DNA of 38,200 nucleotides from a virus (taxonomy: Duplodnaviria; Caudoviricetes), in the IMG/VR virus record IMGVR_UViG_3300046786_001136, positions 1 through 38,200 of that record; one strand, written 5' to 3'. Position 1 is the stretch's first letter; every line of letters begins with the position of its first letter. Under the pieces are notes generated by a model that was not told where the DNA came from, made no database searches, and saw nothing but the letters and a program-made list of their open reading frames with translations. A program made the position numbers and the translations under genes. Shown piece by piece: positions 37 to 30,388 of the stretch.

Positions 37-554
37 GTAGATTAACCACAATGTCGCCAGAGGCTATTAGGGCTATTTTTTCGCCTGAAGCTGACAGCGA
101 CTTATTATTTTTATTGACAGTTTACAGCCCAGACAACCCTGACGTAGTGGTTGGTAGAGTTTGTGACGGATTTACAAAACGTATTAGTGAAACTGCTGAT
201 GAAGTAGTATATGGCGTAACAAGTCGTGGACAGGACTTTGTTTTCTTACCAATGGAAATCTCATTACCTACTGAGGAAGAAGCGCAAGCTCCACGTTGCT
301 CAATAGTTATGAAAGATGTTACAAAATATATTATACCTTTAGTAAGAACTATTGTAGGTCCTCCCAAAGTAAAAATGGAACTGGTCTTATCAAAGACACC
401 CGATACTGTAGAAGCTAGTTTTACCGGTTTTTACATTAGTAGTTTTTCATATAACGCTGATTCAGTAACTGCCGATCTGTCAATGATAGATTATGAGCGT
501 GAGCCGTTTCCAATGCACTCATTTACACCAGCATATTTTCCAGGAATGTTCTAA
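33..554 (+). CDS. Minor tail protein, DUF1833-like (tail-tip gpL position)
   Basis: 173 aa with F..LPMEISLP and a C-terminal EPFP..SFTP..FPGMF pattern, directly before the NlpC/P60 and gpJ-like gene. Confidence 0.7.
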   Translation: MSRLTTMSPEAIRAIFSPEADSDLLFLLTVYSPDNPDVVVGRVCDGFTKRISETADEVVYGVTSRGQDFVFLPMEISLPTEEEAQAPRCSIVMKDVTKYIIPLVRTIVGPPKVKMELVLSKTPDTVEASFTGFYISSFSYNADSVTADLSMIDYEREPFPMHSFTPAYFPGMF

Positions 555-14684: not shown

Positions 14685-17600
14685 ATGAGTCAACTTATTG
14701 ATCTAGGAAAATTACGCTTCCACTTCGCTGGCCAGTGGAGCGCCGGCACTACATACGAATCTAATGATATCGTTAAGTACGGTGGTAACGTATACGTGTA
14801 TACATACGCGTTAAAAACAGCAGGAATTTTGCCTACTGACACAGCTTACTGGGCCTTGATGGTAGAAGGTTTTAACTTCACAGGCGCTTTCACTACACAA
14901 GGTAATTACAAAGTTGGTGACGGTGTTGCACACGGTGGTGTTGTTTACGTTGCTATCAAAGACTCTGTAAATATTACTCCTCCTAATGCAGTTTACTGGT
15001 CACGCTTTTTGGATGGTATCCAATATGAAGGCGAGTACTCTGGTACAGTTTCTTACCAAAAGAATGACGTGGTTCGTTACGGTGGTTCTATCTATGTTGC
15101 AAAACAAGACGGAACAAACCACTTACCCACAGTTACAGCATACTGGGACAAGTTTGTAGAGGGTGTTAGCCCTAAGAGCGTTTACAATGAAGCTACAGCT
15201 TATGTACCAAATGACTTAGTTGCTTATGGCGCTAACATTTATCGTGCTAAGGTTGAAACTACTGGCAATGCTCCAAGTAACACAACTTACTGGGAACTGT
15301 ATGTTGGCGGTATTAAATTTACTGGCAACTACAACGCAGTAACAGAATATTATGTAAACGATATTGTTGTTTATGGTAACAACATTTATCGTTCAAAGTT
15401 AACACAATCCAACACACTGCCAACAGTTGCAGCTAACTGGGAATTGTTAACTGCTGGTAACAGCTACAAAGGCAACTATGTAAACGCTACTGGATACTTC
15501 CAAGGCGACATTGTTAGCTACGGCGGTAACGTATATATTGCACTTGGCGTAACAACAGGTAACTTACCTACTGACGCTACTAAGTGGCAAGTTTATAGCT
15601 CTGGCTTCTCTTACCAAGGTGTTTGGTCTAGCGGAACAGAGTATAAGATTAACGAGATTGTTGGTTATGGTGGTTCATTATATCGCTCTAAAGCTGACAA
15701 CCAAAACGTTAATCCTACAGTTACAGCTACTTGGGATAAAGTGGTTGCAGGCTTTAAGCTTCGCGGCACTTGGGCTACTGCTACACAGTATGCAACTGAT
15801 GAAGTTGTTACTTATGGTGGTAATACCTATATTTCTATTTTACCACACGCTTCCACAGATTTCAATACTGACTTAGCTGCCAACAAATGGCAAAAGTTTA
15901 ACTCAGGTATTCGTTGGATGGGCGTTTGGACTAGTACTACGCAGTACTACAAAGATGACGTTGTAAAAGCCGGCGCTTCTAGTTTCATTGCAAATACAGA
16001 CACTATTGGTGGTAGTAACCCCGCTGGTGGAACAAATGCAAACTGGAGCAGTTTTGCTACTGGTGCTGAAGGCTTCTTGTCTAAAGACGGTGACGCAATG
16101 CTTGGTATGCTTACCTTGTATGCAAACCCCACAGACCCATTACACGCAGCTACAAAATCTTATGTAGACCAGTTTATTAATGCAGCAGCAGGCGGAACTA
16201 TCTTAGGTCCTCTGGTCGCTAGCGGTGCAAATGCAAGCTATACTGCTACAGGCGGTGCTACTATTAACATTAGTGGTGGTAGTTTAAATCTTACAAACGG
16301 TACTACTCTTACAACTGACGGCACTTCTACACTTGGTAATACTCGTGTTTCAGGTAGCTTGGATGTTGATGCAGATTTAAATATTGATGGTGGCGATTTA
16401 ACAGTTACTGGTTCTACCTTTAATTTAGCAAACACAAACGCTACAACAGTAAACATTGCTGGGGCAGCTACAACAGTTGAAATCGGTGCTGCTACTGGTA
16501 CAACTAATGTTAACAACAACCTGGTTGTTGACGGCGATTTGCAAGTAAAAGGCGGCGATCTTACCACTAACCAAACAACTTTCAATGTTGTTAATAACAC
16601 AGCTACTACAGTAAATATTGCCGGAGCTGCAACAACAGTTGAAATCGGTGCCGCAACTGGTACAACTAATATCAATAACAATGTTGTTATTGACGGCGTT
16701 TTAGATGTTTTAAGTGGCTCTACAGTTACAAATACAACTGTTGACCCTACTGGTTTTGATAATCAGCATCCTGATACACGCGGAGTTGTTGAATTTAGTG
16801 ATAATGGTACACGAGTTTACTCAATTGATAAAAACGGTACAACTACTGTTCGTGAAGACAGCAAGTTCGCTACTGGTACTGCTTACGAAACAGCAGCAGT
16901 TGCAAAAACTCTGGCAATCTATCCCGCAGCAGGACAAACAAAGTTTGTTTACTGGATTGGCGGTGTACGTTATGAAAAGTCAGCTTTAGTAACCAAAACA
17001 CTAACAAGTATTAATGGTTATAACTATTTCTATTTTGATGGTGGCACACTAGCAAGTGCTACAGTACGTACTGACGAAATTTTAACAACCAAAGCGAATG
17101 TTGCTGCTGTTCGTGGAACAAACCGTAATAATCGTGTTATCTCTGTAGAAGATCAACGTCATGGTATTTCTATTGACGGTGCTTCATTAGCATACATCAA
17201 ACGTGCAGAAGGTATTAAACTTGTAAGCGGTCATGGAGTTACTCCTGGCACAGTTGGTACAGGTACTTATACAAATACCAAAGCAGGCGAGTTGCGCGAT
17301 GCAGACTTAACATTATCAGCACCAGTTAAAACTTCTAACAAGTTCTTGGTTCGTGATGGTAATGATTGGAAACTTGCTGACTTAAACGACAATTTACTTT
17401 CTTATAAGTTAGGAGTTTTAGGTGGAGTTACAGTTACTAGTCAAGGCAGTGGATACTCTGGCTTATCTACTAGTTTAAGCGTACAAGGCGACGGTGAAGG
17501 TGCAGTAGTTACTCCCGTTTTGGCAGGTGCTCCGTTACAATCTATTACTCTTAACAGTGGTGGATATAATTACGCAAACGATGCAACAGTTACTTTATTG

Positions 17601-20600
17601 GGTGATGGCACAGGAGCTACCGCTTCTATTGTTGTTCCAGCAGGTAGAAACATTGCTTCGGCGGCTATTACAAATGTAGGTTCACGTTATACTACTGCTC
17701 CAACTGCAACAGTTGTAGGTGGTGGTGGTACAGGAGCTACATTATCTACTACCTTAAATTTAGGTACCCCAATTGCCAAAGTTCATATGGATACTTTGGG
17801 AAGCGGATATACTACAGCTAGTGCGCAGATCAATGGTGATGGTACAGGAGCAACTGCAGTAGTAACTATCGTTGCTGGAGCTGTTACTGATATTGATTTA
17901 ACAAATGCTGGTTCTGGATACACCTACGCAACAGTAACAATTACTGGTAACGGCACAGGAGCTACAGCAACTGCACACACTCTTAAAAGCTTTGTACAAT
18001 CTTATGAAATTACTAATGTTGGTAGTGGTTATACAAGTGCCCCAACTGTTACAATTAATGGTGATGGTCACGAAGCTACTGCAACAGCACAAATTACTGC
18101 AGGTGGTGTAACCGATATTGTAATTACCAATGGTGGTCACGGGTATACTTACGCTACCATTACAATTAGTGGTGGTGGTGGTACAGGCGCTACGGCCAAT
18201 CCAATTCTGAGCGGATACCCATTACAGTCAGTTACAGTTACTAACCCAGGCAAGAACTATACTAGTACGCCTTCAGTAACAATTACTGGTAATCAGTACA
18301 GTACTAATGGAGCAATTGCTCTTACACGGGCAGCAGGTAATACTATTGAAAGTATTAGTTTAGTATCACCAGGTACAAACTACACCTACGCAACAGTGCA
18401 GATTAATAGTACAACAGCAGGTACAGGCGGTAGTTTTACAGTTGCAGCTACCCCTAGCGGTATTTTAGGTGTTACAGTTGTTAATGGTGGTCGCCACTAC
18501 AGTTATGCAAATATTGTAGCAACTGATACAGGCGGAGCAACAGGTTTTGCAGCCACAACATCTCTTACTCCAGTACCACAGTATAATGGATACGTTAACA
18601 GTTCTGTAGGATATGATTTAAATAATATTCCAGCAGGCAAGTATACTAATACATATTTTGTAGCAGTATCTAGTGTAGATCGTGTTGTAAAGATACCTAG
18701 TGCTTATCTGTTCGATACTGTACGCGAAGCATTCCAGTACAGTAAGAAAGAAATTGAAGAACTAAAAACTCAAGGCATGCCTTTTGACAATTACAAGTTC
18801 TTAGGCGTATCAGTAATTAATAACTCTGGTGAGTTAGTAACTATTCCTGGTACTAACCTTGGTGATGTTTTATATTATGATCTTTTAAATAATGATTATA
18901 ATTCAACACCACTAATAGATAATGGTACTAAAGTTGGTAGGTCTCTTACTATTGGTGCCACAGGTACTGGAGCAGCATGGATTGGAGCTACTGAGTCTAG
19001 TAAAGTTTACTATGTTGCACCTCACGGTGTTGATCAACCAACAAGTGGTAGTAATATGGCCGCTCCGTTTGCAAGTATTAAATACGCTTGCCAACGAGCA
19101 GAAGAAGGTTCTACAATTTTTGTTAAAACTGGAACATACAATGAACAACTACCAATAGTTGTACCGCCTCATGTGGCTATTGTTGGAGACAATCAGCGTA
19201 CAGTTAATGTTCAACCAAAAACTGGTAATAGCGATGATGGTGTAACACCAAACAACCAAGCAACAATGTTTAAATTGAGCAACGGCTCAATCTTAAATAA
19301 AATGACTTTCAAAGGTATGACTGGTTGGGTCCCTGGTTCTACTCCAAGTGATATTACAACTTCTACAATTAAAGGTGTTGTTGTTGGATTTAATCCAGCT
19401 TCACCAATTACTACTAAGTCCCCTTATGTTTTAGAGTGTGCGTTTATCGGTTCTGGCGCTATTGGTGCTTTAATTGATGGTACAGTTCATACAACTGGTG
19501 CTAAAACCATGATTTTCCATGGTTATACTGTTATTTCGGATAATGGTGTTGGTTACTGGGTAAAGGACGAAGGTAAGGCTGAGATTGTAAGTTGCTTTAC
19601 TTATTACGCTTATTTTGGTTATATTGGTACTGGCGGTGGATTTATTCGTGCACTAAACGGCAATAATAGTTATGGTACTTGGGGTGCAGTATCACAAGGA
19701 TTCGGAGCGTCAGAAACTGCAGTAACAGGTACTATAGTTGGTCAGCAATTAAACTTTGTTTATCAAGGTGGTACAATTAATGCAGGTGATATTTGTACAA
19801 GCAGTAGCGGTGCTCAGGGTGTTGTTACAAACGTACAGTACAGCGCAAACAAAGTATATTTACGAACCACAAGCGGTACTTTTAGCCTAGGTAATACTTT
19901 AACATTTACTAGTGGCGGTACAGGTACTGTAAGCGCCGGTGCTCTAGAGAATCAAAAAGGTTTTGTTTTAGTACTCAATAATTTAACCGCAATGCCAAAA
20001 CCTGGACAAAGTATCCAGATTGCTGGTGATACCTATGCTTATGTTATACAAAGTGTAACAGGTACTTATGTTGGTACTGGCAGTGAGATTGTTGTAGTAT
20101 TAGCTCAGGAGAAACCAACAGGATCAGCAAACGGTACTGCAGTTAGTTTACGTAGTAAATACTCACAGATTCGTTTAACTGGTCACGACTTCTTGTCAAT
20201 TGGTACAGGCGGTGTAACAACTACTAATTATCCAGGCGAGCCTTTACAGTCAGCTTCGCAGGGTAATGAAACAAACGAAGTTTTCCCAGGTCGTGTGTTC
20301 TACGTATCAACTGACCAAGATGGTAACTTCCGCGTAGGTGAATATTTCCGTATTGATCAAGCAACTGGACGTGCTACCCTGAATGCTAACGCGTTCGACT
20401 TGGCAGGTTTGACTAGCTTGAAACTGGGTTCAATTGGTGCTCAACTTGGTGAAACTATTAACGAGTTCTCAAGCGATGCAACAATGAGTGGTAACTCAAA
20501 TACTGCTGTTCCAACAGAGTATGCAGTTAAGGCGTATACAGATACTACTGTTCTTGCAAATCGGGATATTTCTACACTAACACCTACGTACAACGTGGAT

Positions 20601-20792
20601 AATCAAGTATTTAATGCTAATGGTTATGTTACTACATACAAAGATAATGTTCAAGAAATTACTAATGTTGTTTACAATGCAAACTTCTTACCAACAAGTT
20701 GGTCAGAAAAAGTTGCAGGTGGAGTAAAAACTTATAGTTATACTGTTACCTACGATGTAAATAACAAAATATCTACAATAACACGCGTTTAA
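14685..20792 (+). CDS. Giant multi-module tail fibre/adhesin (CBM5/12-like repeats, Gly/Thr repeats, beta-helix-like domain)
   Basis: 2035 aa: nine Y..NDxVxYGG..Y...P....W repeats; HAATKSYVD fibre motif; a 54-aa duplication; ten (I/V)T..GSGY-type repeats; YYVAPHG.D...G.....PFASIKYA...G.TIFVKTGTYNE, which marks the start of a pectin-lyase-like beta-helix. Confidence 0.85.
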   Translation: MSQLIDLGKLRFHFAGQWSAGTTYESNDIVKYGGNVYVYTYALKTAGILPTDTAYWALMVEGFNFTGAFTTQGNYKVGDGVAHGGVVYVAIKDSVNITPPNAVYWSRFLDGIQYEGEYSGTVSYQKNDVVRYGGSIYVAKQDGTNHLPTVTAYWDKFVEGVSPKSVYNEATAYVPNDLVAYGANIYRAKVETTGNAPSNTTYWELYVGGIKFTGNYNAVTEYYVNDIVVYGNNIYRSKLTQSNTLPTVAANWELLTAGNSYKGNYVNATGYFQGDIVSYGGNVYIALGVTTGNLPTDATKWQVYSSGFSYQGVWSSGTEYKINEIVGYGGSLYRSKADNQNVNPTVTATWDKVVAGFKLRGTWATATQYATDEVVTYGGNTYISILPHASTDFNTDLAANKWQKFNSGIRWMGVWTSTTQYYKDDVVKAGASSFIANTDTIGGSNPAGGTNANWSSFATGAEGFLSKDGDAMLGMLTLYANPTDPLHAATKSYVDQFINAAAGGTILGPLVASGANASYTATGGATINISGGSLNLTNGTTLTTDGTSTLGNTRVSGSLDVDADLNIDGGDLTVTGSTFNLANTNATTVNIAGAATTVEIGAATGTTNVNNNLVVDGDLQVKGGDLTTNQTTFNVVNNTATTVNIAGAATTVEIGAATGTTNINNNVVIDGVLDVLSGSTVTNTTVDPTGFDNQHPDTRGVVEFSDNGTRVYSIDKNGTTTVREDSKFATGTAYETAAVAKTLAIYPAAGQTKFVYWIGGVRYEKSALVTKTLTSINGYNYFYFDGGTLASATVRTDEILTTKANVAAVRGTNRNNRVISVEDQRHGISIDGASLAYIKRAEGIKLVSGHGVTPGTVGTGTYTNTKAGELRDADLTLSAPVKTSNKFLVRDGNDWKLADLNDNLLSYKLGVLGGVTVTSQGSGYSGLSTSLSVQGDGEGAVVTPVLAGAPLQSITLNSGGYNYANDATVTLLGDGTGATASIVVPAGRNIASAAITNVGSRYTTAPTATVVGGGGTGATLSTTLNLGTPIAKVHMDTLGSGYTTASAQINGDGTGATAVVTIVAGAVTDIDLTNAGSGYTYATVTITGNGTGATATAHTLKSFVQSYEITNVGSGYTSAPTVTINGDGHEATATAQITAGGVTDIVITNGGHGYTYATITISGGGGTGATANPILSGYPLQSVTVTNPGKNYTSTPSVTITGNQYSTNGAIALTRAAGNTIESISLVSPGTNYTYATVQINSTTAGTGGSFTVAATPSGILGVTVVNGGRHYSYANIVATDTGGATGFAATTSLTPVPQYNGYVNSSVGYDLNNIPAGKYTNTYFVAVSSVDRVVKIPSAYLFDTVREAFQYSKKEIEELKTQGMPFDNYKFLGVSVINNSGELVTIPGTNLGDVLYYDLLNNDYNSTPLIDNGTKVGRSLTIGATGTGAAWIGATESSKVYYVAPHGVDQPTSGSNMAAPFASIKYACQRAEEGSTIFVKTGTYNEQLPIVVPPHVAIVGDNQRTVNVQPKTGNSDDGVTPNNQATMFKLSNGSILNKMTFKGMTGWVPGSTPSDITTSTIKGVVVGFNPASPITTKSPYVLECAFIGSGAIGALIDGTVHTTGAKTMIFHGYTVISDNGVGYWVKDEGKAEIVSCFTYYAYFGYIGTGGGFIRALNGNNSYGTWGAVSQGFGASETAVTGTIVGQQLNFVYQGGTINAGDICTSSSGAQGVVTNVQYSANKVYLRTTSGTFSLGNTLTFTSGGTGTVSAGALENQKGFVLVLNNLTAMPKPGQSIQIAGDTYAYVIQSVTGTYVGTGSEIVVVLAQEKPTGSANGTAVSLRSKYSQIRLTGHDFLSIGTGGVTTTNYPGEPLQSASQGNETNEVFPGRVFYVSTDQDGNFRVGEYFRIDQATGRATLNANAFDLAGLTSLKLGSIGAQLGETINEFSSDATMSGNSNTAVPTEYAVKAYTDTTVLANRDISTLTPTYNVDNQVFNANGYVTTYKDNVQEITNVVYNANFLPTSWSEKVAGGVKTYSYTVTYDVNNKISTITRV
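14718..16064 (+). repeat. Nine tandem ~49-aa CBM5/12-like repeats
   Basis: Consensus F.G.(W/Y)...T.Y..(N/G)D.V.YGG..Y......G..P.....W...G, counted by eye. Confidence 0.85.
16374..16697 (+). repeat. Tandem 162-bp (54-aa) duplication
   Basis: DL...GGDLT....TFN..N..ATTVNIAGAATTVEIGAATGTTN.NNN.V.DG occurs twice, starting at 16374 and 16536. Confidence 0.9.
17425..18570 (+). repeat. About ten ~37-aa Gly/Thr-rich repeats
   Basis: Recurrent IT(N/S).GSGYT.A.V.I.G.GTGATA units. Boundaries are approximate. Confidence 0.8.
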
Positions 20793-20801
20793 GGAGTAAT
20801 A

Positions 20802-21962
20802 ATGTCAGTAAACGTTTTAGAATATAATGAATTTGCAGGGGAAGTTAATACTCTGCGAAATACGACACTACCTGCTGCTAAAACCTGTTATGGTACCAAA
20901 GGAAATACTGAAGGTTCTGCTTGCGGAACCGCCATAAGTTTAACCAATAGTTGTAAACAAGCTAATTACGGAATCCGCTTAACCTGTGACCTACAGGTTA
21001 AGCCTTGGGATTGCAGAACTTGGGCAGCTATTCCTTCACTAAATACAGTTGATGGATCAATTAAGGTATGTGATATAAGTGCTTCTGCCTGTGCTAATCA
21101 ATTACGTTGTGGAGCTAGCTGTACTTGGGTAGTGCCCGCTGGTGTAACAACAGCACGATTCCAAGTCTGGGGTGCCGGAGCAGGCTCGCACAATATGTGT
21201 TGCTGCGGTGGCGGTATGTGGGGCGGTAGCGGAGCTTATGCTTCCGTTATTTTACCAGTAACTCCAGGCACATCATATACTACTTGCGCAGGGTGTGCAT
21301 ACTGTTGCTTTATGCAAGGTGCTGGTGCAACAGCTGGAGCAGGGGCTACAAGCTGGGTTCAAGGTCCTGGTTTATGTAACTTCTGTGCAGATGGTGGTGA
21401 ACCGAACATGTACTGTATGTTAGTGCGTCACTATGATGGTGCTGGTGGTTACTGCGTTTTAATGAATCCATGGAGTGCGGACGATAAAGCTGCTCGTGGA
21501 GTAGTATACGGCTGGTGTATGTGTGATGGTGGTGGATGGTGCTGGAGCAATACATGTTCTGGTCGCAATAGTTTACCATTTATAACAAGTTGCAAAACTT
21601 GGTATGGTTGCCTTACAGCTCCTACTAAGGGCTGTCACTTTGTAATTGGCGCTCCTGGCATGTTTAACTCTGTTAATATGGGCGGTGGCGGTGATGGAGA
21701 TAGCGTTCCAAACGGTCAACAAAACGAAGTTTGCCTGTGTTTAATACATCCACCAGTAGTTAACTTAACATGTGACTGCTACGGACACAGAATTAATGCA
21801 TCAAGTACTTGTAATGCAAGTTGCCATGGCTTTGTGCATTGTGGATGTTTCCCATTCCCAAGTCGCGGCGGATATCCAAGCTCTACGGCTGGTGGATGTG
21901 ATAACTGTGGCGGTGGATGGGGTGCTGCAGGCATGGTATGTATACAGTGGAATAAGGAATAA
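20802..21962 (+). CDS. Cys-rich glycine-rich-domain protein A (putative distal fibre adhesin)
   Basis: 38 Cys in 386 aa by manual count. Frame TWVVPAGV..ARFQVWGAG..CCCGG..GAYAS...PVTPG and C-terminal GG.G..GMVCI.W match the phage glycine-rich domain. No signal peptide. Confidence 0.65.
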   Translation: MSVNVLEYNEFAGEVNTLRNTTLPAAKTCYGTKGNTEGSACGTAISLTNSCKQANYGIRLTCDLQVKPWDCRTWAAIPSLNTVDGSIKVCDISASACANQLRCGASCTWVVPAGVTTARFQVWGAGAGSHNMCCCGGGMWGGSGAYASVILPVTPGTSYTTCAGCAYCCFMQGAGATAGAGATSWVQGPGLCNFCADGGEPNMYCMLVRHYDGAGGYCVLMNPWSADDKAARGVVYGWCMCDGGGWCWSNTCSGRNSLPFITSCKTWYGCLTAPTKGCHFVIGAPGMFNSVNMGGGGDGDSVPNGQQNEVCLCLIHPPVVNLTCDCYGHRINASSTCNASCHGFVHCGCFPFPSRGGYPSSTAGGCDNCGGGWGAAGMVCIQWNKE

Positions 21963-21966
21963 TTTT

Positions 21967-22599
21967 ATGGAAAAAACTTTTAATAAAGCTGTGCCAGATG
22001 AGCTGTATATTGACTCTTTTGCACAAAACAAAACAGAAACCTATACTTATACAGGCCCCGAAACTGTTAAAGTTATAGTAGATCGTATCTATGGAGGAGT
22101 ACAACATGTACTCCTTCCTGGTGAATTAGATACACATAATCAAGAACTAAGTACAGTAATTGTAGTAGATGCTGAAACAGCAACAGATGTTGCATATTTT
22201 TTAACAAATACAGCTACTGGAGCACGTGAGTTTGAAACAGAAAATTTACCTGGTGACTATACTTACCAAAAGTTATCTAATCCAACAATTCGTGATTACT
22301 ACAAAGTAAACTATGATTTTGAAACTAGTACCTGGAAATGGGCACTGATTACACGGTTAGCAAAAACACCTTTAAATGATTTAGCAGATAAATATAAACA
22401 ATATATTGAAGACAACAAATCTAAAGTAAGCTCTAGTGCTGAATTAACAGCATTAGCAAATACATACCTACAACAGTTAAATGATTTTAATACTACAGGT
22501 ATTGGCAGCATACCTTCATGGAAATTTATAGAAATATCCTTAGCAGATGTGCCAACACCTCCATCACAATTAGTAGTAGCATTTAATGTACTACCATAA
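21967..22599 (+). CDS. Hypothetical protein, possible fibre assembly chaperone (start revised to 21967)
   Basis: ATG at 21967 follows an AAGGA RBS and avoids a 190-nt overlap. The resulting 210-aa acidic, Cys-free protein sits between the two Cys-rich paralogs. Confidence 0.6.
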   Translation: MEKTFNKAVPDELYIDSFAQNKTETYTYTGPETVKVIVDRIYGGVQHVLLPGELDTHNQELSTVIVVDAETATDVAYFLTNTATGAREFETENLPGDYTYQKLSNPTIRDYYKVNYDFETSTWKWALITRLAKTPLNDLADKYKQYIEDNKSKVSSSAELTALANTYLQQLNDFNTTGIGSIPSWKFIEISLADVPTPPSQLVVAFNVLP

Positions 22600-22614
22600 T
22601 CAAGGAGTACATTA

Positions 22615-23802
22615 ATGGATATTTTAGTATATGCTGCTAAAAAGAACATCAATGATTTAAATACTTGTATTAACACTTATGTTCCTACAACTTTTTATCA
22701 AGGATGTTTTGATGCAGCTAAAACATCGGCTAATGATGGAACCTTATGGACCGCCAATAGCGGTCTGTATTCAAACTATCAAAAACAAGGCGGTTCAGCA
22801 TGTATTTGGTCTAGACCTTGGTGTACAGGTACTTGGACAAGCATACCAACACTTCCAGGAGGTACAACTTGTACAGCAGGTACTAATCCAGCTACTAGTG
22901 CAGAATACTTAGGACTTAAAGTTTGCAGTACTAATCTTTATGGAAGTACTCCAGTTTGTACTTGGACTGTTCCAGCTGGAGCAAGCATTGCACGATTCCA
23001 AGTCTGGGGTGCCGGTGGACGTAGTGGTAGTGGATGTTGCTGTGGAGGTTCTACTTGGGGCCAAAATGGTGCCTATGCTTCTATAATTATACCGGTAACT
23101 CCTGGTTGTCAGTATACACTTACAGCTGCTTGTGCTTGTACTACTCCAGTATGTTGGGGTCAAAATTACGGAGGTAGATCAGATGCTTCTTCTGTAACAG
23201 GATATGGATTGTGTAATTTCTGTGCTATGAGCGGTACTGATGCAAATCATTGGTGCTTTATGACCTATGATATGGGTATTACTCAACGTTTTAGCGGTTG
23301 CTGCCGCTGGTCAGTAGGAGATTGTTGGTCAGCAGGTGCCTGTATTTGTAATGGACAAAGTGACTTCTGTCACCAAAGTTGCAGTACTTGCGGCTGTATT
23401 AATCGTAGTTGCAGTAATACAACTAAGTATTATGGCTGCAGTACTTTACCGTTTGTTGGTAGTGCAGAAAAACTCTATGGTTCACAAGTAGCGGGTATCG
23501 TTGGATTAAATGGCGGTATGTGCTTTAATACTAGTTTCTACGGTTGTGGAATAGCTGCCCCCGTATATGGATTCCATTGCACTAGTGGTGGCGGAGAACT
23601 AGTAGCATTTCAAAATGGTAATACTTGTGGCGGATTGTTATGTAACCATGCTTCAACATCTTTCCGTAGGTATCCTGGAGCTGGAGGTACATTAGTAGCT
23701 TTATTTGGCGGATGTACTCTTACGTGTGATCCTGCTGGCTGTATTACTGCCTGTGGCGGAGATATTGGTCGAAACGGTATGGTTTGCGTAACTTACGCTT
23801 AA
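22615..23802 (+). CDS. Cys-rich glycine-rich-domain protein B (paralog of A)
   Basis: 38 Cys in 395 aa by manual count. Shares CTW.VPAG...ARFQVWGAG, CCCGG, GAYAS.I.PVTPG, GLCNFCA and GMVC with protein A. RBS AAGGAG. Confidence 0.65.
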   Translation: MDILVYAAKKNINDLNTCINTYVPTTFYQGCFDAAKTSANDGTLWTANSGLYSNYQKQGGSACIWSRPWCTGTWTSIPTLPGGTTCTAGTNPATSAEYLGLKVCSTNLYGSTPVCTWTVPAGASIARFQVWGAGGRSGSGCCCGGSTWGQNGAYASIIIPVTPGCQYTLTAACACTTPVCWGQNYGGRSDASSVTGYGLCNFCAMSGTDANHWCFMTYDMGITQRFSGCCRWSVGDCWSAGACICNGQSDFCHQSCSTCGCINRSCSNTTKYYGCSTLPFVGSAEKLYGSQVAGIVGLNGGMCFNTSFYGCGIAAPVYGFHCTSGGGELVAFQNGNTCGGLLCNHASTSFRRYPGAGGTLVALFGGCTLTCDPAGCITACGGDIGRNGMVCVTYA

Positions 23803-23815
23803 ACTGTAGTTCAAT

Positions 23816-23849
23816 TATAAGTTTGGGGATTGATCTCCCCAAACTTATA
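23816..23849. terminator. 14-bp perfect hairpin (possible weak terminator or processing/stability element)
   Basis: TATAAGTTTGGGGA-TTGATC-TCCCCAAACTTATA, followed by TCTTGATTTTT rather than a clean U-run. Confidence 0.6.
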
Positions 23850-23879
23850 TCTTGATTTTTAAATTTAAATAATAATAAT

Positions 23880-24905
23880 ATGAAAAAAGCCTTTTTTATT
23901 AACGGTGGTATTGGCAGAGTGTTGTGTGCTATACCTGCATTAGAGCACTATGTGACTAATGTCGATCCTGAAGCCGTTATTGTAGTAGAAGCATGGATGG
24001 AACTATTTTTAACTAGTCCAGCCTTAAAAAATAATGTATATCAAATAGGTCAAAAAGACCTATTTAGAGATAAACTGTTAGATAGGGAACTTGTAAGCCC
24101 AGAACCTTATAGACTTAACGCATACTTTAATCAAAAAGCTAATTTAATTCAGGCTTTTGATATGCTTATTAATGATCTTAAAGAAGTACCGGAAACTAAA
24201 CCTATCAAGACTTCGTTGGGCAAAGCGGACCAAGTATTTGGTCATAATATGTTAGCGCAAGCTAGACAGAACTTGCAACGAGAAAAGATTGTAGTATTTC
24301 AGCCTTTTGGTAGTGGTGCGCGACAAGACGGTAATTTTATAATCGATGAAAGTGGTCGTAGTTTTGAATTAAAAGATATTTATAAAATATTAGAAGAACT
24401 TGGTAAACATTATGGAATTATCCTAATGAGCCATATAACTCTTCCTCAAAATAAAACACTTCCAGTTATTGCTCCAGAAAGCGTAAGTACTTTACAGTGG
24501 CTAGGCATTATAAATGCTAGCGATTATTTTTTAGGGTGTGATAGTGTTGGGCAACATTTTGCTCATGCACTTAACAAACCTGCAACCGTTGTTATTGGGT
24601 CAACTTTTCCAGAAAACATTAGTTACCCAAGCAATAAGCAATTTACTATTATTGATAATGGTAAAGAAAATCGTCAATATTCACCAATTAGGATTACAAC
24701 TGATCCATTTATTGATAGGGCAAATGAAGATTTAATGATTTTATCTGATAAAAATTTGGAAAAAGTTATTAAAAGTGTTACAGATAAGTTAGGTAAAACA
24801 AAACAAAAAGAGTATAAAATACCTAATTTAAATGATACTCACGTACATACTGCTAGTTGTGAGCATAATCAACCACCTTTTGCAAAGAAACAAAATTTAA
24901 TTTAA
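23880..24905 (+). CDS. GT9-like (heptosyltransferase-family) glycosyltransferase
   Basis: N-terminal GGIGRVLCAIPAL (compare GT9 GIGD....P), central VVFQPFGS and C-terminal FLGCDSVGQHFAHALNKPATVVIGST (compare GxDSGxxHxAxAxxxP). Confidence 0.75.
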   Translation: MKKAFFINGGIGRVLCAIPALEHYVTNVDPEAVIVVEAWMELFLTSPALKNNVYQIGQKDLFRDKLLDRELVSPEPYRLNAYFNQKANLIQAFDMLINDLKEVPETKPIKTSLGKADQVFGHNMLAQARQNLQREKIVVFQPFGSGARQDGNFIIDESGRSFELKDIYKILEELGKHYGIILMSHITLPQNKTLPVIAPESVSTLQWLGIINASDYFLGCDSVGQHFAHALNKPATVVIGSTFPENISYPSNKQFTIIDNGKENRQYSPIRITTDPFIDRANEDLMILSDKNLEKVIKSVTDKLGKTKQKEYKIPNLNDTHVHTASCEHNQPPFAKKQNLI

Positions 24906-24906
24906 T

Positions 24907-26697
24907 ATGAAAAAAACAAGATATATCTTAGGAATCAGTCGTGGACATAATGCAGGCGTATGTTTGCTAAAAGACGGAGAGATTGTATTTGCAATTGAAG
25001 AGGAACGATTAAGTCGCACTAAATATGATGGTGGCCCTTATGCGGCTATGGTTAAAGTACTTGAGTACACAGACAAAATTGACTTTTTGGTTATTTCACA
25101 TACGCAATCATTGGATGAAACGGCTGGTCGAGTAGATTTTACAGGAGACGATGTATATACAGGTTTAGCTCGTAAATTGGGTTTAATATCTCGCAAAGAA
25201 GACCCCCGCAATCACCCACAAGTTGTTGATTTAAGTCACCTACATCATAAAATTCATGCAGCTGCAGCGTTTTATCGCAGTGGTTTTGAAGAAGCAGTAG
25301 CAGTTGTTGTAGACGGTGCTGGAAGTTCTATTGATGGCAACTTTAAAGGTGAAGCATTAAAACTATGGGAAGTAGAGTCTGTTTTTGACTGTGCATACCC
25401 CAATATGTTAAAAACAGTATATAAACATTATGGATGCAGATCACCTATTCCATCCCACTTTAATCCAGAAGACTCTAGTGAACGATTTGGCGAACCAGGC
25501 ACACACGCTACTTTAGTTACCGGTCATGCAGGCATTACAAAAACTTATGAAGCTGTAACCGAATACTGCGGATTTTCAGCAATTGAAGCTGGTAAAACTA
25601 TGGGATTGTTTCCTTATGGTAAGCCCAACGATAATATTCCTCCACTATTTAAGAAAATGTCAGGAATTAATTTATCCGACCGTAATTTTATTGTACCTAC
25701 GTATCCTAATAGTGCAGTTGTTAATGTTGGATTAGTTGAAGAGTTGCAGGAAAGCAATGCAGAAGATGTAACTTTATTGCAGAATAGACGAGACTTAGCC
25801 TATGCTTGTCAAACACAAACACAGCAACAAGTATTAGAGTTAATTATTAAAGCCTCAGAATTAACAGGTAAAAAGAAAGTAGCACTTAGTGGTGGATACG
25901 CATTAAACTGTGTAGCAAACTACTTTTACTTAACTGAGTTAAATAAACATGGGATTGAGCTTTATGTAGAGCCTGTTTCAAATGATGGTGGTACTGCTAT
26001 TGGAGTAGCCCTTTTATTCTATCATGGCACAGAAGGCAGCACAAAGAAACATCCACGAGAGATTTACTTAGGACCCGTAATTAAGTATACTGAACAAGAA
26101 ATCCAAAACTTGGCAGATCAGTACCAAGCTGAAGTTACCACAGCAAGCAAAGAAGACATTGTTGATTTAATGACTTCTAAAAATATTGTTGCAATGTTTC
26201 AAGGCCGAAGCGAAAACGGACCACGTGCACTAGGTAATCGAAGTTTAATGTTTGACCCTACTTTTGTAGACGGCAAAGACTTTGTAAATGAAATTAAGCA
26301 TCGCGAATATTTCAGGCCTTTTGCAGGTTCTATTTTAGAAGATGATGTGCATGAATGGTTTGACTTGCGTGGAATGAAAAACAGTCCACATATGATGTAT
26401 GCTGTAAATTGTCAACCAGGTGTTGAACATAAAATCCCCGCTATTATTCATGTAGACGGAACTTGTCGTATTCAGACTGTTAATCAAGAAGAAAATCCAC
26501 ACTACTACGAAGTAATTAAAGCTTTTAAAGAAAAAACAGGCGTACCTATTATCTTTAATACTAGCTTTAACCTAGGTGGAGAACCTTTGGTAGAGACTCT
26601 TGACGATGCACTGTGGACCTTAAGTAAAACTGGTATTGACTATTTGTACTTACCAGAGTATAATAAGCTAATTACTGTAAAAATTAAACAACAATGA
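24907..26697 (+). CDS. O-carbamoyltransferase, NodU/CmcH/TobZ family
   Basis: HNAG..., EEERLSRTK, HHKIHAAAAF, VVDGAG, GKTMGL, SGGYALNC, NDGGTAIG, GPRALGNRS, KHREYFRPFA, HVDGTCRIQTV, NTSFN..GEP. Confidence 0.95.
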   Translation: MKKTRYILGISRGHNAGVCLLKDGEIVFAIEEERLSRTKYDGGPYAAMVKVLEYTDKIDFLVISHTQSLDETAGRVDFTGDDVYTGLARKLGLISRKEDPRNHPQVVDLSHLHHKIHAAAAFYRSGFEEAVAVVVDGAGSSIDGNFKGEALKLWEVESVFDCAYPNMLKTVYKHYGCRSPIPSHFNPEDSSERFGEPGTHATLVTGHAGITKTYEAVTEYCGFSAIEAGKTMGLFPYGKPNDNIPPLFKKMSGINLSDRNFIVPTYPNSAVVNVGLVEELQESNAEDVTLLQNRRDLAYACQTQTQQQVLELIIKASELTGKKKVALSGGYALNCVANYFYLTELNKHGIELYVEPVSNDGGTAIGVALLFYHGTEGSTKKHPREIYLGPVIKYTEQEIQNLADQYQAEVTTASKEDIVDLMTSKNIVAMFQGRSENGPRALGNRSLMFDPTFVDGKDFVNEIKHREYFRPFAGSILEDDVHEWFDLRGMKNSPHMMYAVNCQPGVEHKIPAIIHVDGTCRIQTVNQEENPHYYEVIKAFKEKTGVPIIFNTSFNLGGEPLVETLDDALWTLSKTGIDYLYLPEYNKLITVKIKQQ

Positions 26698-27104
26698 AAA
26701 TCTTTGTAAACGGCACTTTTGACGTCTTACATCCAGGCCACCTAGACTTGCTTAATTATGCAAAAAGTCTAGGTGACTTTTTACTGGTAGCAATAGATTC
26801 GGATGAACGAGTCGCCAGCAAAAAGGGATTGGACAGACCGCTAAACCCACAATATAATCGAATGAAATTATTACAAAACCTAAAAGCGGTTGATGAAGTA
26901 GTAATTTTTGATAACGATACTGAACTAGCACAAACAGTAAAAATACTAAGGCCTGACATAATGGTTGTTGGGTCAGACTACCAAGATAAAACCGTAATCG
27001 GTTCGGAATATGCTAAACAACTTAGATTCTATACTAGATCAACACCTCACTCAAGTACCCAAGTATTGGAAAATTTTATTGCTAGGCGACACTTGCACAG
27101 ATAA
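26694..27104 (+). CDS. hldC: Cytidylyltransferase-family nucleotidyltransferase (RfaE/HldE domain II-like, heptose-1-P adenylyltransferase)
   Basis: NGTFDVLHPGH (HxGH motif), DSD..V...KG..RP, VDEV, PD..V.GSDY and C-terminal SST. Confidence 0.8.
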   Translation: MKIFVNGTFDVLHPGHLDLLNYAKSLGDFLLVAIDSDERVASKKGLDRPLNPQYNRMKLLQNLKAVDEVVIFDNDTELAQTVKILRPDIMVVGSDYQDKTVIGSEYAKQLRFYTRSTPHSSTQVLENFIARRHLHR

Positions 27105-27795
27105 ATATGTATACGGTACTATTGACCGTTTAAGTCCAGAAGCGCCAGTGCCTGTTTTTGTACCTAAGTACGAAGAAAATCGTCGTGGTATGGCAGGAAA
27201 CGTAGAAGAAAATTTAAAAGCTTTTGGTTGCGATGTTAGCCTGTTAACTTTAGAAGGCGGTACAAAAACTCGGTTTATAGATGAACGCAGTAATCAGCAC
27301 ATTATGCGTTTAGATCAGGATGCCAAAGGCGGTCCGATAGAGCTTGCAGTTACTATACCTCCTATCTATGACGCCATAGTAATATCAGATTACAACAAAG
27401 GTTGTATTAGTTACGAATTAGTAGAACAAGTACTACAACAATTTAATGGCCCTGTGTTTATTGATACAAAGAAAACAGATCTTGCTAGATTTGAAGGTGC
27501 TTTTGTAAAAATCAATAGCTTAGAAAATTCATTGGCTAAAACACTGCCTTCGCAAACTATAGTTACACTAGGTAAGCAAGGTTGCGAGTACGCAGGCCAA
27601 ACATATCCAGCACCACAGGTAGAGGTAGCAGATGTGTGCGGAGCAGGAGATACATTTTTAGCTGCGCTAGTCTACAGCTTTTTAGAAACAAATAGTATTC
27701 CAGAAGCACTTGTATTTGCTAATCGTGCTGCTGCGGTAACAGTAAAACATATTGGTGTGTATGCACCTACATTGAAAGAAATAAATGAGGCTTGA
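27010..27795 (+). CDS. hldA: PfkB-family sugar kinase (RfaE/HldE domain I-like, heptose-7-P kinase)
   Basis: GD...D.Y.YG...RLSPEAPVPV, GMAGNV..N, TKTRF, ISDYNKG and DVCGAGDTF. The start codon is uncertain because of a 95-nt overlap. Confidence 0.85.
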   Translation: MLNNLDSILDQHLTQVPKYWKILLLGDTCTDKYVYGTIDRLSPEAPVPVFVPKYEENRRGMAGNVEENLKAFGCDVSLLTLEGGTKTRFIDERSNQHIMRLDQDAKGGPIELAVTIPPIYDAIVISDYNKGCISYELVEQVLQQFNGPVFIDTKKTDLARFEGAFVKINSLENSLAKTLPSQTIVTLGKQGCEYAGQTYPAPQVEVADVCGAGDTFLAALVYSFLETNSIPEALVFANRAAAVTVKHIGVYAPTLKEINEA

Positions 27796-28141
27796 AGGTT
27801 TTGTAGAAAAAGGCTGGGGTTCAGAAAATATTTGGGCTACCAATGACAAGTATTGTGGTAAGTTACTACAGTTTAATACTGGTTCAAAATTTTCTATGCA
27901 TTTTCATGCTCGCAAAGACGAAACTTGGTATGTACTTAGTGGCAAGTTTGTTGTAAAGTATATTGAGACGCATAACGCTGAAGTATACGAAAAGACACTG
28001 ACAGTTGGTGATGTATGGCATAACCCTCCATTGTTACCACATCAACTAATCTGTGTAGAGGCTGGCACTATTATTGAAGTATCAACACCTGATTCAGTAG
28101 AAGACAACTATCGAGTTGGCAAAGGCGATAGTCAGCAATGA
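27785..28141 (+). CDS. Cupin-fold protein (sugar-phosphate isomerase-like)
   Basis: KGWG.E, SMHFH..KDETWYVLSG, PHQL and EVST form a cupin metal-binding H-x-H...E...H motif. Confidence 0.8.
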   Translation: MRLEGFVEKGWGSENIWATNDKYCGKLLQFNTGSKFSMHFHARKDETWYVLSGKFVVKYIETHNAEVYEKTLTVGDVWHNPPLLPHQLICVEAGTIIEVSTPDSVEDNYRVGKGDSQQ

Positions 28142-28431
28142 AATATATTGTAGACATAGATGGTACAATATGTACTAATACTAATGGCGACTACCCAAAC
28201 GCAGAGCCTTATTTATATCGTATAAAGCATTTTAATAATCTTTATGATGCTGGTAACGAAATTCACTATTGGACAGCTCGCGGTAGTAATAGTGGCAAAG
28301 ACTGGTTAGAACTCACACTCAAACAGTTAAATGACTGGGGTGTTAAATATACCACTGCTCAAACAGGTAAACCAGCATACGACATTTGGATAGACGACAA
28401 AGCCTTTAACGTAGGCACATACTTTGAATGA
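28138..28431 (+). CDS. Small capless HAD-superfamily phosphatase
   Basis: DIDGTIC (motif I), WTARG (II), GKP (III) and IDDKA (IV). Confidence 0.85.
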   Translation: MKYIVDIDGTICTNTNGDYPNAEPYLYRIKHFNNLYDAGNEIHYWTARGSNSGKDWLELTLKQLNDWGVKYTTAQTGKPAYDIWIDDKAFNVGTYFE

Positions 28432-29213
28432 AAATTTTATTAACAGGACATAAAGGCTTTATTGGACAGAATATGTTACAAGCCTTGCAAAATACTAACC
28501 ATGAGATTAGTACTTTTGAGTGGGAAGATGGAAACATGCCCAGTATTATGGAACAAGAGTGGGTTATTCACATTGGCGCAATCAGCTCAACCACAGAGCG
28601 TGACGTTGATAAGGTTATGCGTCAAAACTATGATTTTAGCCGACAGGTATTTAATGCTTGCAAAACATATGGTGTAAACTTACAGTACTCTAGTTCAGCA
28701 AGTGTATATGGTCTAGGAACAGATTTTTGTGAAACTGCTCCAGTAGATCCACGAAATGCTTATGCTTGGTCAAAGTATTTGTTTGAACGCTATCATCAAC
28801 AGCATCAAGGCGGCAACGTAGTACAAGGCTTTCGCTACTTTAATGTGTACGGTCCAGGTGAGGATCATAAAGGTTCACAAGCTAGTCCTTACCATCAGTT
28901 TGGTAAGCAGGCTCGCGAAACCAACAAGATCAAGGTATTTGAAAACAGCGAACAGTATTTACGAGATTTTGTACCAGTTGAGCAAGTAGTTGCTACTCAT
29001 CTGGCTTTTTTAAACAGTCAAGAATCAGGCATATTTAACGTTGGTACCGGCACTACTAAAAGCTTTTTAGAAGTTGCTGAAAGTTTTGGAGTTCCCATTG
29101 AAACAATACCAATGCCTGAGCAGTTAACCGCAAGTTATCAAAAGTATACTTGTGCTGATATGACAAAAACAAACAAAGTTTATGACCACTTTAAAAGAAT
29201 TAACACACGATAA
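28428..29213 (+). CDS. rfaD: ADP-L-glycero-D-manno-heptose 6-epimerase-like extended SDR
   Basis: TGHKGFIG, HIGAISSTTE, YSSSASVYG, YAWSK (YxxxK), FRYFNVYGPGEDHKGSQAS, RDFV, YQKYTCAD. Confidence 0.88.
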   Translation: MKILLTGHKGFIGQNMLQALQNTNHEISTFEWEDGNMPSIMEQEWVIHIGAISSTTERDVDKVMRQNYDFSRQVFNACKTYGVNLQYSSSASVYGLGTDFCETAPVDPRNAYAWSKYLFERYHQQHQGGNVVQGFRYFNVYGPGEDHKGSQASPYHQFGKQARETNKIKVFENSEQYLRDFVPVEQVVATHLAFLNSQESGIFNVGTGTTKSFLEVAESFGVPIETIPMPEQLTASYQKYTCADMTKTNKVYDHFKRINTR

Positions 29214-29721
29214 CCACGTGCTTGCAGAAGCTCATCCTTTTACCAAGCTGTTATTAAGTGGTAAGATTTCTGAAGCTATATATGCTGATTTTTTATACAA
29301 TCAGCAAGCGATTTATTATTCCCTTGAAGCAGCGGCTAAAAGAAAAGGCCTTTTAGACGGCTTAGATGGAATAGAGCGAACCCTGAAAATCGGCGATGAT
29401 TTTGATAATTTACCAAAGTGTAAAACAAACTTGTACCCTAGTACAATAAAATATATCAACTACATCATCAATCGAAATTTAAGTGCAGATCAAATCTTGG
29501 CTCACTTATATGTTCGTCATATGGGCGACTTATACGGCGGTCAAATGATTAAACGAGTTGTTCCTGGTGATGCCACTATGTACGACTTTGATAACCGCAG
29601 TGAGTTGATTGCTGCCCTACGACAAAAATTAAACGTATCAATGGCGGCAGAGGCAAATGAATGTTTTGCTTTTGCTATAGAACTATTTACTGAGTTAGCC
29701 AATGAGTACAATATTCAATAA
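29182..29721 (+). CDS. hemO: Heme oxygenase
   Basis: LKELT...H..AE (proximal His), AHLYVRHMGDLYGGQMI distal helix and EAN..F.....LF. Confidence 0.92.
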   Translation: MTTLKELTHDNHVLAEAHPFTKLLLSGKISEAIYADFLYNQQAIYYSLEAAAKRKGLLDGLDGIERTLKIGDDFDNLPKCKTNLYPSTIKYINYIINRNLSADQILAHLYVRHMGDLYGGQMIKRVVPGDATMYDFDNRSELIAALRQKLNVSMAAEANECFAFAIELFTELANEYNIQ

Positions 29722-30388
29722 ATTAAAAGCTCATGCCAAAGAATTGGAAGCAATTCTTGAGGCACGGGCTTTTTCTTCGCCTTCAGAAAACACCTCAGAA
29801 TGGTACACCAAGAACTTTACTAGTTGTTGGATACGTCGTGCCAATTTAGACGTGATTGACGTTAGCCAAGAGAAAAAATTATATATGATGCACTTGTGTG
29901 TATTTCCAAAAGTGTTTGATGCAGCACCTATTTATGGTTTTGACATTGTAGCTGGCACTAATAAGATAACAGGTGCATTTTTAGATTTTTCACCAACAGG
30001 TAGTCCAGACCATCCACTTTGCAAGTGGTTTGAAGAGTTTGTAGAGCCTACCGAGTGGTCAAAGCCACGACAACTACCAGAGTGGGCACGCAATATTTTT
30101 AGTCCGCGCATGGTAGCAGCAGGAAATATTAACTCAGAATTTGAACTTAGTTTAATCCTAGAAATATCAAAAAAATCGTTGATTTATTACTTGGATAATA
30201 TTTCAAAATACAGACCTAAGTTAACATACGAACAAATGGTAGAACAGTATAACTTTACTGAACAGCAGAATTACTACTGCCAACAGCAAAAATGTAACCC
30301 ACATACTCCACGAGTATTAAAATCGCTAGGATTCAATGATGATCAAGTCCATGATTATATACATAAAGAACTATTTCCTGAAGTATGA
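29702..30388 (+). CDS. pcyX: Ferredoxin-dependent bilin reductase, PcyX/PcyA-like
   Basis: RRA.L, MMHLCVFP, PIYGFDIVAG..KITGAFLDFSP, R.LPEWA..IFS, QNYYC.QQ..NPHT.RVL..LG, LFP. Directly follows heme oxygenase. Subfamily assignment is from recall. Confidence 0.8.
   Translation: MSTIFNKLKAHAKELEAILEARAFSSPSENTSEWYTKNFTSCWIRRANLDVIDVSQEKKLYMMHLCVFPKVFDAAPIYGFDIVAGTNKITGAFLDFSPTGSPDHPLCKWFEEFVEPTEWSKPRQLPEWARNIFSPRMVAAGNINSEFELSLILEISKKSLIYYLDNISKYRPKLTYEQMVEQYNFTEQQNYYCQQQKCNPHTPRVLKSLGFNDDQVHDYIHKELFPEV

Follow-up and report, generated by a model that had tools for sequence, protein, structure and literature searches.

A GT9-fold transferase with arginine at the catalytic aspartate position is linked to cysteine-rich predicted fibre-tip proteins of phages and may glycosylate them

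We analysed a complete 38.2-kb virus record of a lake phage (IMG/VR record IMGVR_UViG_3300046786_001136; hereafter the window), in which genes for a GT9-fold transferase (GT), a carbamoyltransferase and heptose synthesis follow a tail fibre and two cysteine-rich (Cys-rich) proteins, CysA and CysB. The families of these genes, the fold of the GT, an Arg (Arg13) at its catalytic-Asp position and a two-way linkage between the GT and Cys-rich fibre proteins are observed, and the module is real, conserved and unexplained. Glycosylation of the fibre at some residue is probable; that the GT places S-linked (carbamoyl-)heptose on the tips of the phage's own fibres is, in our judgement, evenly balanced. 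The initial annotation had put forward that the phage decorates its own Cys-rich fibres, possibly on Cys. Its co-occurrence and phylogeny tests came out in favour of this idea, and the linkage is to Cys-rich predicted tips; the donor is less certain.

The linkage was tested reciprocally, in loci anchored on PcyX, the cupin and the carbamoyltransferase besides the GT; open reading frames (ORFs) were counted as Cys-rich if Cys made up 8% or more over 150 residues. The GT-anchored set comprises 175 loci in 98 clusters at 90% identity, 78 of them with 4 kb upstream. A Cys-rich ORF is found in 75/78 clusters and the carbamoyltransferase in 87/91. Based on the carbamoyltransferase (79 loci, 64 with 4 kb upstream), the GT is present in 64/64 loci and a Cys-rich ORF in 62/64; the other two are cut before the tips and end among oxygenase genes. 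The PcyX-anchored set was chosen regardless of the GT: of 80 loci, 34 with no visible fibre gene were dropped and 46 kept. A Cys-rich tip is found in 8/8 of those with the GT (one fused to the fibre) and in 0/38 of those without it (Fisher p 4e-9, kinship ignored). These counts bear out the co-occurrence of this GT clade with Cys-rich fibre genes, which had been proposed as a check. Six of these PcyX-anchored loci lie on contigs that also occur in the GT-anchored set. Many of the GT-less tips contain 24–34% Gly and 0–2% Cys and match the same Gly_rich_2 family as relatives of CysA; the matches comprise 13 GT-less tips among 30 proteins scanned, plus the fused GT-positive tip below the cut-off. 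On a PcyX tree of 44 rows, seven switches of tip/GT state are needed, at least five of them forced. Concerning the cupin-anchored set (80 loci), 74 loci have no GT within 8 kb, and a Cys-rich ORF is present in 0/74 of these and in 5/6 with the GT. Four cupin-anchored loci have a GT9-like neighbour (two Pfam-confirmed, with Asp), none with a Cys-rich ORF. No GT was found elsewhere in the genomes of GT-less relatives (0/13, in a search without a positive control).

Cys enrichment is also found in folds unrelated to CysA. Distant GT clades adjoin Gly-poor proteins of 500–1,450 aa with up to 20% Cys and no match to the CysA profile. In the N4-like Vibrio phage SBP1, and likewise in D505 and K479, the gene after the GT encodes a Phage_Tail_Tip protein whose stalk has 6–9 Cys per 100 residues. 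Aligned with the homologue of phage 1.188.A (23.8% identity), the tail protein of SBP1 has Cys at 19 positions where that homologue has none; the homologue has D, E, Q, T or S at 15/19 of them, and no GT was found in the phage 1.188.A genome. In the Aeromonas phage HJ05, the gene before the GT has a Cys-rich C-terminus. Pfam gave no match for the HJ05 tip, nor for nine large Cys-rich neighbours that are Gly-poor or divergent and two others of this type. Enrichment in unrelated folds is the strongest argument for Cys as the acceptor, because block inheritance of one module cannot explain it. At three loci (L212:3325-7494, L198:4979-7459 and L233:1719-3986), the fibre region encodes proteins of 755–1,389 aa that contain about 10% Cys and match no Pfam family.

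The carbamoyltransferase contains the Carbam_trans_N and Carbam_trans_C domains, both above Pfam cut-offs. It is as tightly linked as the GT and has a weak HypF match, and the Cys could be modified by this enzyme (HypF-like S-carbamoylation) or protected by the GT acting as a non-catalytic GT-fold chaperone. Loss of the Asp fits a pseudo-enzyme, and four loci (L203, L244, L249, L256) have neither the carbamoyltransferase nor a strongly Cys-rich ORF. However, no carbamoyltransferase was found in the genomes of the four Vibrio and Aeromonas phages, which contain the GT and Cys-enriched fibres, so that Cys enrichment tracks the GT; the donor-site residues of the GT are also invariant. We regard both versions as distinctly unlikely. 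Around the GT and carbamoyltransferase, some loci (L050-L080, L083, L372) contain variable tailoring enzymes, namely 2-oxoglutarate–Fe oxygenases, extra carbamoyltransferases, a methyltransferase, a sulfotransferase and a halogenase.

CysA contains 9.8% and CysB 9.6% Cys. The CysA model (predicted local distance difference test, pLDDT, 72.8) matches the Pam3 fibre with Z 12.2 (root-mean-square deviation, rmsd, 3.5; 187 residues aligned) and the Bxb1 tail tip with Z 11.9; its matches to known adhesin folds have an rmsd of 3.5–4.1. Pam3 gp24 is a TNF-like plus glycine-rich, gp38-like fibre (PMC9942802, excerpt; here and below, 'excerpt' marks a paper cited for part of its text). Gly_rich_2 is matched in 16/55 members of the CysA family, CysA itself not among them. 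CysA and CysB are predicted fibre-tip adhesins, with the 2035-aa fibre as their predicted carrier, and they are the putative glycan acceptors. The Cys-rich fibres first described are thus two ORFs for predicted tips, which flank a gene for a Cys-free protein, whereas the main fibre is not itself Cys-rich. The 210-aa Cys-free protein has no family match of its own, and the lead for its chaperone role comes only from Atlas (score 0.81) and from the same slot in other loci.

The GT may instead glycosylate the tips on Ser/Thr or another residue in the manner of TibC, with Glu75 as base, the Cys forming disulfides or binding metal. TibC, which modifies adhesins (PMC4358343, excerpt), is among the tied fold matches of the GT, and E75-P76-Y77 is invariant. 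CysA and CysB contain 14–19% Ser+Thr, and the Cys conserved in at least half of the family are 15/38 in CysA and 11/38 in CysB (16 and 18, respectively, are conserved in under a quarter). At locus L357, the neighbours of the GT are Ser/Thr-rich and Cys-poor. Against local shuffles, 224 Cys-rich neighbours show a 1.5-fold frequency of CC and 1.15-fold of CxxC; CxxC metal sites in the tips were rejected for want of a CxxC excess. O-linkage also fails to account for the Cys enrichment, which recurs in several unrelated folds but only next to this GT, and for the Cys scattered over polar positions of a helical stalk; we consider it unlikely.

The GT, first described as GT9-like, belongs to GT9 by predicted fold and has no Pfam match. 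A search of its sequence against solved structures also gave no match, and the GT9 relation emerged only from the fold search. The model (pLDDT 90.7) matches 3tov with Z 22.5 (rmsd 3.6, 279 residues aligned), WaaF with 21.2, TibC with 19.2 and WaaC with 18.9, the next family scoring 11.9; Foldseek matches it to GT9 with E 5e-9. The N-terminal motif NGGIGRVLCAIPAL is aligned to TSSMGDVLHTLPAL of WaaC, with Arg13 in register with Asp13 of WaaC and WaaF. We take WaaC Asp13, which follows beta-1, to be the catalytic Asp. The equivalent TibC motif, G-T-L-G-D, ends (counted by hand) at Asp110, the catalytic base of that enzyme (PMC4358343, excerpt). Arg is found at this position in 190/192 locus homologues, the remaining two being truncated. 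Among 91 full-length distant representatives, 81 have R, four K and none D; the motif is unmatched in six. A set of residues invariant in 11/11 divergent cases checked (R13, E75, P76, Y77, Q141, P142, G144, R160, S161, D221, H226, T242, R271) fits an active site, and the cleft residues are unchanged out to the Vibrio and Aeromonas phages. The C-lobe donor motif D221-S-V-G-Q-H226 aligns with D-T-G-L-S-H of WaaC; in a profile comparison with single WaaC/WaaF sequences, this motif alone was aligned. The GTs of four loci (L357, L244, L249, L252), with Ala or His at position 37, are often near a sulfotransferase and lie beside Cys-poor proteins; they may have another acceptor.

A cassette which remodels host lipopolysaccharide (LPS) or another surface glycan, and so blocks superinfection, was the alternative given in the initial annotation. 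The closest solved folds are LPS heptosyltransferases, and carbamoyl-heptose is found in the LPS core of Pseudomonas. Such a role is also the published reading of the 'LPS genes' of phage P-SSM2, where sugar genes in two clusters were guessed to alter the host surface (Sullivan et al. 2005, PMC1079782, excerpt), and it is kept in PMC12801897 (excerpt). The alternative is weakened, however, by several results. The GT has no Asp base and scores 15 bits, far below the NCBIfam equivalog cut-off of 170 for LPS heptosyltransferases. On a tree of 34 rows, the 27 phage Arg enzymes are on one branch (Shimodaira–Hasegawa-like approximate likelihood ratio test, SH-aLRT, 98, with long branches and quick-mode support only), outside which lie five GT9s of bacteria and two phage GT9s of the Asp type; the phylogeny check thus places the Arg enzymes in a clade of their own, separate from WaaC/F/Q/U. 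About 1,825 relatives of the GT were found; 185,579 prokaryote genomes gave 11 matches, all on contigs of metagenome-assembled genomes (MAGs) with phage-like neighbours. The cyanobacterial hosts have LPS with neither heptose nor 3-deoxy-D-manno-oct-2-ulosonic acid (Kdo), as described for marine Synechococcus (PMC4515613, excerpt). LPS remodelling also gives no reason for Cys-rich fibres tracking the GT, and we hold it to be very unlikely. The MAG loci (L168-L178) are phage-like contigs (up to 335 kb) that binning had placed in MAGs of bacteria and archaea. Beside heptose genes (L324:5435-6304, L333:3966-4850) there is a second clade of phage GT9s, of the Asp type, which has no Cys-rich neighbours.

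Concerning the donor, the best NCBIfam matches of the kinase, nucleotidyltransferase and 6-epimerase are heptose enzymes, all below equivalog cut-offs. GmhA was found in 0/10 whole records (E. coli control positive), and neither in the window nor in the loci scanned. All 31 clusters that include HldA or RfaD also contain the cupin, and none of them contains GmhA. The cupin resembles the C-terminal cupins of mannose-6-phosphate isomerase and has a metal site; since that isomerase reaction has its seven-carbon counterpart in the conversion of sedoheptulose-7-P to manno-heptose-7-P, the cupin likely replaces the isomerase GmhA. Among 67 clusters, the mini-HAD is found in 16 and a true GmhB-like gene in 21, never together (p 0.0009, kinship ignored). 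GmhB is not present at the locus in the window, the mini-HAD is, and it likely replaces this phosphatase. A commentary on Tang et al. 2024 (Science) describes the phosphatase as absent in viruses (PMC11461863, excerpt), and a 1xpj-like HAD of phage DLP3 was assigned to sugar-phosphate dephosphorylation (PMC13326640, excerpt). The C-terminal motif of HldC is H-S-S-T, which differs from the promiscuity motif G-R-S-T-T (PMC11573728).

The heptose genes are a looser unit, separable from the GT. HldA is found in 5/19 mostly partial genomes, two of which are GT-less controls. Such loose linkage suggests that phage heptose has other uses and that hosts may supply the donor. Many large phages (L322, L336 and similar cupin-anchored loci) contain cupin–RfaD–HldC–HldA among replication-like genes with no GT9 nearby, a context judged by eye from N-terminal sequences. 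This context is consistent with hypermodification of phage DNA by carbamoyl or heptosyl groups on bases, and a phage carbamoyltransferase makes 5-carbamoyloxymethylcytosine (PMC8670742, excerpt). According to the same excerpt, enzymes that modify DNA are found together with homologues of thymidylate synthase; in 30 proteins scanned from the neighbourhood of this GT, no such homologue was recognised. As the position at the fibre-tip genes and the linkage to Cys would be left unexplained, DNA hypermodification is most improbable.

Under S-linked heptosylation, the explanation we favour, the GT would move heptose from a predicted nucleoside diphosphate (NDP)-heptose donor onto cysteines of the adjoining predicted fibre tips, and the carbamoyltransferase would add a carbamoyl group to the transferred heptose. 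The donor would be made from sedoheptulose-7-P via heptose-7-P (cupin), the bisphosphate (HldA), heptose-1-P (mini-HAD), NDP-heptose (HldC) and its 6-epimer (RfaD). Arg13 would favour an already ionised thiolate, so that no Asp base would be needed. The tips would be modified in the cytoplasm, ahead of assembly, and a coated tip would be one of two interchangeable host-recognition modules, block-swapped among close relatives. In its widest form, which we put forward tentatively and think somewhat more apt to fail than to hold, the phage-only GT9 clade would be a protein S-heptosyltransferase, placing carbamoyl-heptose on tens of Cys per receptor-binding fibre subunit in sipho-like, T4-like, N4-like and jumbo phages. 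Unrelated fibre folds would repeatedly have evolved stretches of 8–20% Cys as attachment sites, the cupin and mini-HAD would replace GmhA and GmhB in donor synthesis, and the cyanophage 'LPS genes' at this locus would be a virion-coating system.

Several points weigh against this explanation. Heptosylation of tip cysteines is argued from genes, models and linkage. The match of Arg13 to Asp13 comes from a sequence alignment at about 15% identity, not from superposed coordinates, and a plant NADH dehydrogenase-like (NDH) subunit, 7wff_a, scores Z 19.1 with the GT model, so a GT9-fold protein can be structural. Disulfides are used by Pam3 fibres (PMC9942802, excerpt), and the wide conservation of 15 of the 38 Cys of CysA fits structural disulfides. 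Genes in linkage can move together as a block with no action on one another, so the counts are not independent events; some PcyX loci also share contigs with GT loci. Loci L184, L203 and L244, and likewise L347, have no ORF that reaches the Cys threshold, and in L357 an intact GT (with Arg13) and carbamoyltransferase lie beside Cys-poor repeat proteins. The donor is uncertain, since near the GT in 67 clusters HldA is found in just 30, HldC in 26 and RfaD in 30, and since this GT is present in just 3/20 cupin-anchored genomes (1/4 near-complete). The NDP-heptose donor of the initial annotation is upheld as far as the enzyme families go and is less certain than it implied.

The features are listed in Table 1. 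A lambda-J-like tail tip, the main fibre, CysA, the chaperone-like gene and CysB are followed by a 77-bp gap and then by an overlapping run from the GT to PcyX; lysis genes come next. All the genes first named lie where they were placed, on the + strand, and the last two genes of that interval (29182-30388), left unnamed there, encode heme oxygenase (HO) and PcyX.

Table 1. Features of the fibre and sugar region of the window
Feature	Position	Strand	Basis
Main tail fibre, 2035 aa, 4 Cys	14685..20792	+	PHROG 9851 tail fibre E 2e-224; Cys count
CysA, Cys-rich (38 Cys), glycine-rich, fibre-tip adhesin-like	20802..21962	+	Predicted-structure matches
Cys-free 210-aa protein, likely tail-fibre assembly chaperone	21967..22599	+	Same-slot proteins match Phage_tail_APC
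CysB, paralogue of CysA, 38 Cys	22615..23802	+	33% identity to CysA; PHROGs 35878 and 4205 common to both
14-bp hairpin, terminator-like	23816..23849	+	TAAATA box downstream at 23866-23871
GT9-fold transferase (GT), Arg13 at catalytic-Asp position	23880..24905	+	Predicted fold; keeps R160 and D221-S-x-x-x-H226
NodU/CmcH/TobZ-type carbamoyltransferase	24907..26697	+	PF16861 E 1e-58, PF02543 E 1e-26; TobZ, NovN, GdmN matches
HldC-like heptose-1-phosphate nucleotidyltransferase	26694..27104	+	45% identical to domain II of E. coli HldE; TIGR02199 match below cut-off (E 7e-34)
HldA-like heptose-7-phosphate kinase	27010..27795 (start may be 27043)	+	30% identical to domain I of HldE; TIGR02198 match below cut-off (E 9e-42)
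Metal-site cupin (H-x-H-x4-E ... H)	27785..28141	+	PF01050 E 2e-5; Atlas clusters auto-named ManC/lyxose isomerase
97-aa HAD phosphatase (mini-HAD), EcbF/BcbF-like	28138..28431	+	TIGR01689 E 1e-5; structures 9iqw and 1xpj
RfaD/HldD-like NDP-heptose 6-epimerase	28428..29213	+	37% identical to RfaD of E. coli; TIGR02197 match below cut-off (E 7e-64)
Heme oxygenase	29182..29721	+	PF01126
PcyX-type bilin reductase	29702..30388	+	PF05996; 5owg PcyX E 7e-52 vs PcyA E 1e-11

The gap (23803-23879) holds the hairpin (z -4.6, 0/200 shuffles as good). TAAATA, which we presume to be a late promoter by analogy with T4, is found upstream of the GT in 38/95 homologous loci compared with 12 expected; the window as a whole is not enriched (64 vs 64 expected), and a sigma-70 scan is at chance level (36 found vs 39.5 expected). 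The hairpin and the enriched box suggest that the enzymes form their own transcription unit. The earlier view that no promoter lies between fibres and enzymes does not hold, and the argument from co-expression built on it is unsound. Contigs from RNA libraries cover the region (30/30 bins in X1); one of depth 30 ends at 23775, and contigs of depth 3 to 4 from two runs bridge the hairpin. Such contigs cannot show transcript ends or levels and were not used as evidence. Within the main fibre gene (16880-20530), RNA-library contigs end loosely and, at one joint, leave out about 3.6 kb; these features may reflect variant fibres of related phages.

The lineage appears to be siphovirus-like, with genomes of about 100 kb, because the J-like tip is common to 4/5 related genomes and a sheath was found in 0/4 (P-SSM2 control positive). 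One 1189-aa protein (554-4123) fuses NlpC/P60, ThiS-like and J-like tail domains, and a secreted-looking protein of 371 aa with long Asn/Thr/Ser repeats (31732-32847) is encoded directly after the endolysin.

Concerning the HO–PcyX pair, RRANLDV of the window PcyX aligns with RRAHLDV of 5owg; the Asp at the Asp55 position, a mark of PcyX (PMC11480375, excerpt), was judged by this motif alignment, not by residue numbering. Phage hemO–pcyX cassettes, covered by PMC11480375 and bioRxiv 2020.02.13.942896 (excerpts), correspond to the last two genes of the run, which here lie behind fibre genes and are independent of the sugar cassette. Heme oxygenase keeps its slot where the GT cassette is absent, and HO–PcyX is found behind fibre-module genes in 44/49 informative loci (L088-L167 set) with either tip type. 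This placement points to a role that is late or linked to the virion, and not to one in photosynthesis. Membership of HO–PcyX in the sugar cassette, and attachment of bilins to Cys, were rejected, as the pair stays with Cys-poor tips.

The same genes, in nearly the same order, are found behind the tail fibre in cyanomyoviruses (T4-GC 299-308; P-SSM2 PSSM2_304-313; S-CAM1, S-CAM3, S-SSM7), and the GT is 55% identical to PSSM2_307 of P-SSM2. Their string is annotated as hypothetical or 'LPS', whereas that of the window belongs to a lineage with a J-like tip and no sheath and is followed by HO–PcyX. TibC and Aah (bacterial autotransporter heptosyltransferases, BAHT) resemble the present system in the GT9-like fold, a gene beside an adhesin and an ADP-heptose pathway nearby. 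They have the Asp110 base, an N-terminal beta-barrel and a four-Cys iron finger (PMC4358343, excerpt), whereas the GT has Arg, no barrel and three Cys in all. The fold match to TibC starts at TibC residue 97, and TIGR04414 (BAHT) gave no match in the GT at E 0.1. The acceptors also differ, an adhesin in one case and predicted Cys of a phage fibre tip in the other. WaaC, WaaF and WaaQ (GT9, PF01075) have the fold and the D-S/T-x-x-x-H donor motif in common with the GT; they differ in Asp13, in sequence (about 15–20% identity) and in clade, and the fibre context is that of the GT. The glycocin S-glycosyltransferases SunS and ThuS, which act on Cys as is proposed for the GT, have a GT-A/GT2 fold and transfer hexoses to small secreted peptides. 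Mycobacteriophage-encoded glycosyltransferases coat virion proteins (Freeman et al. 2023, cited in PMC12619734, excerpt), at the C-termini of capsid and tail tube; here many fibre-tip Cys are the predicted sites, with carbamoylation and donor synthesis of the phage's own.

The genes are present in public genomes, and both the synthesis of NDP-heptose by viruses and the glycosylation of virions are already known. No account of the module as a fibre-coating system was found in the literature searched, which lay outside subscription journals and supplements (these phage enzymes may appear in those of Tang et al.). A Cys-directed sugar coat on viral fibres would be without precedent for any virus in that literature. 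It offers testable answers to two open questions, namely what the P-SSM2 'LPS' cluster does (PMC1079782, excerpt) and why viruses make NDP-heptose (PMC11573728), and it proposes the cupin as a non-homologous GmhA. The system is carried by the cultured phages P-SSM2, S-CAM1, S-SSM7 and SBP1 and is therefore directly testable. If true, this would mean that a GT-B enzyme densely S-glycosylates a structural protein; it would represent a new kind of host-range module and may provide a tool for Cys-directed glycoengineering.

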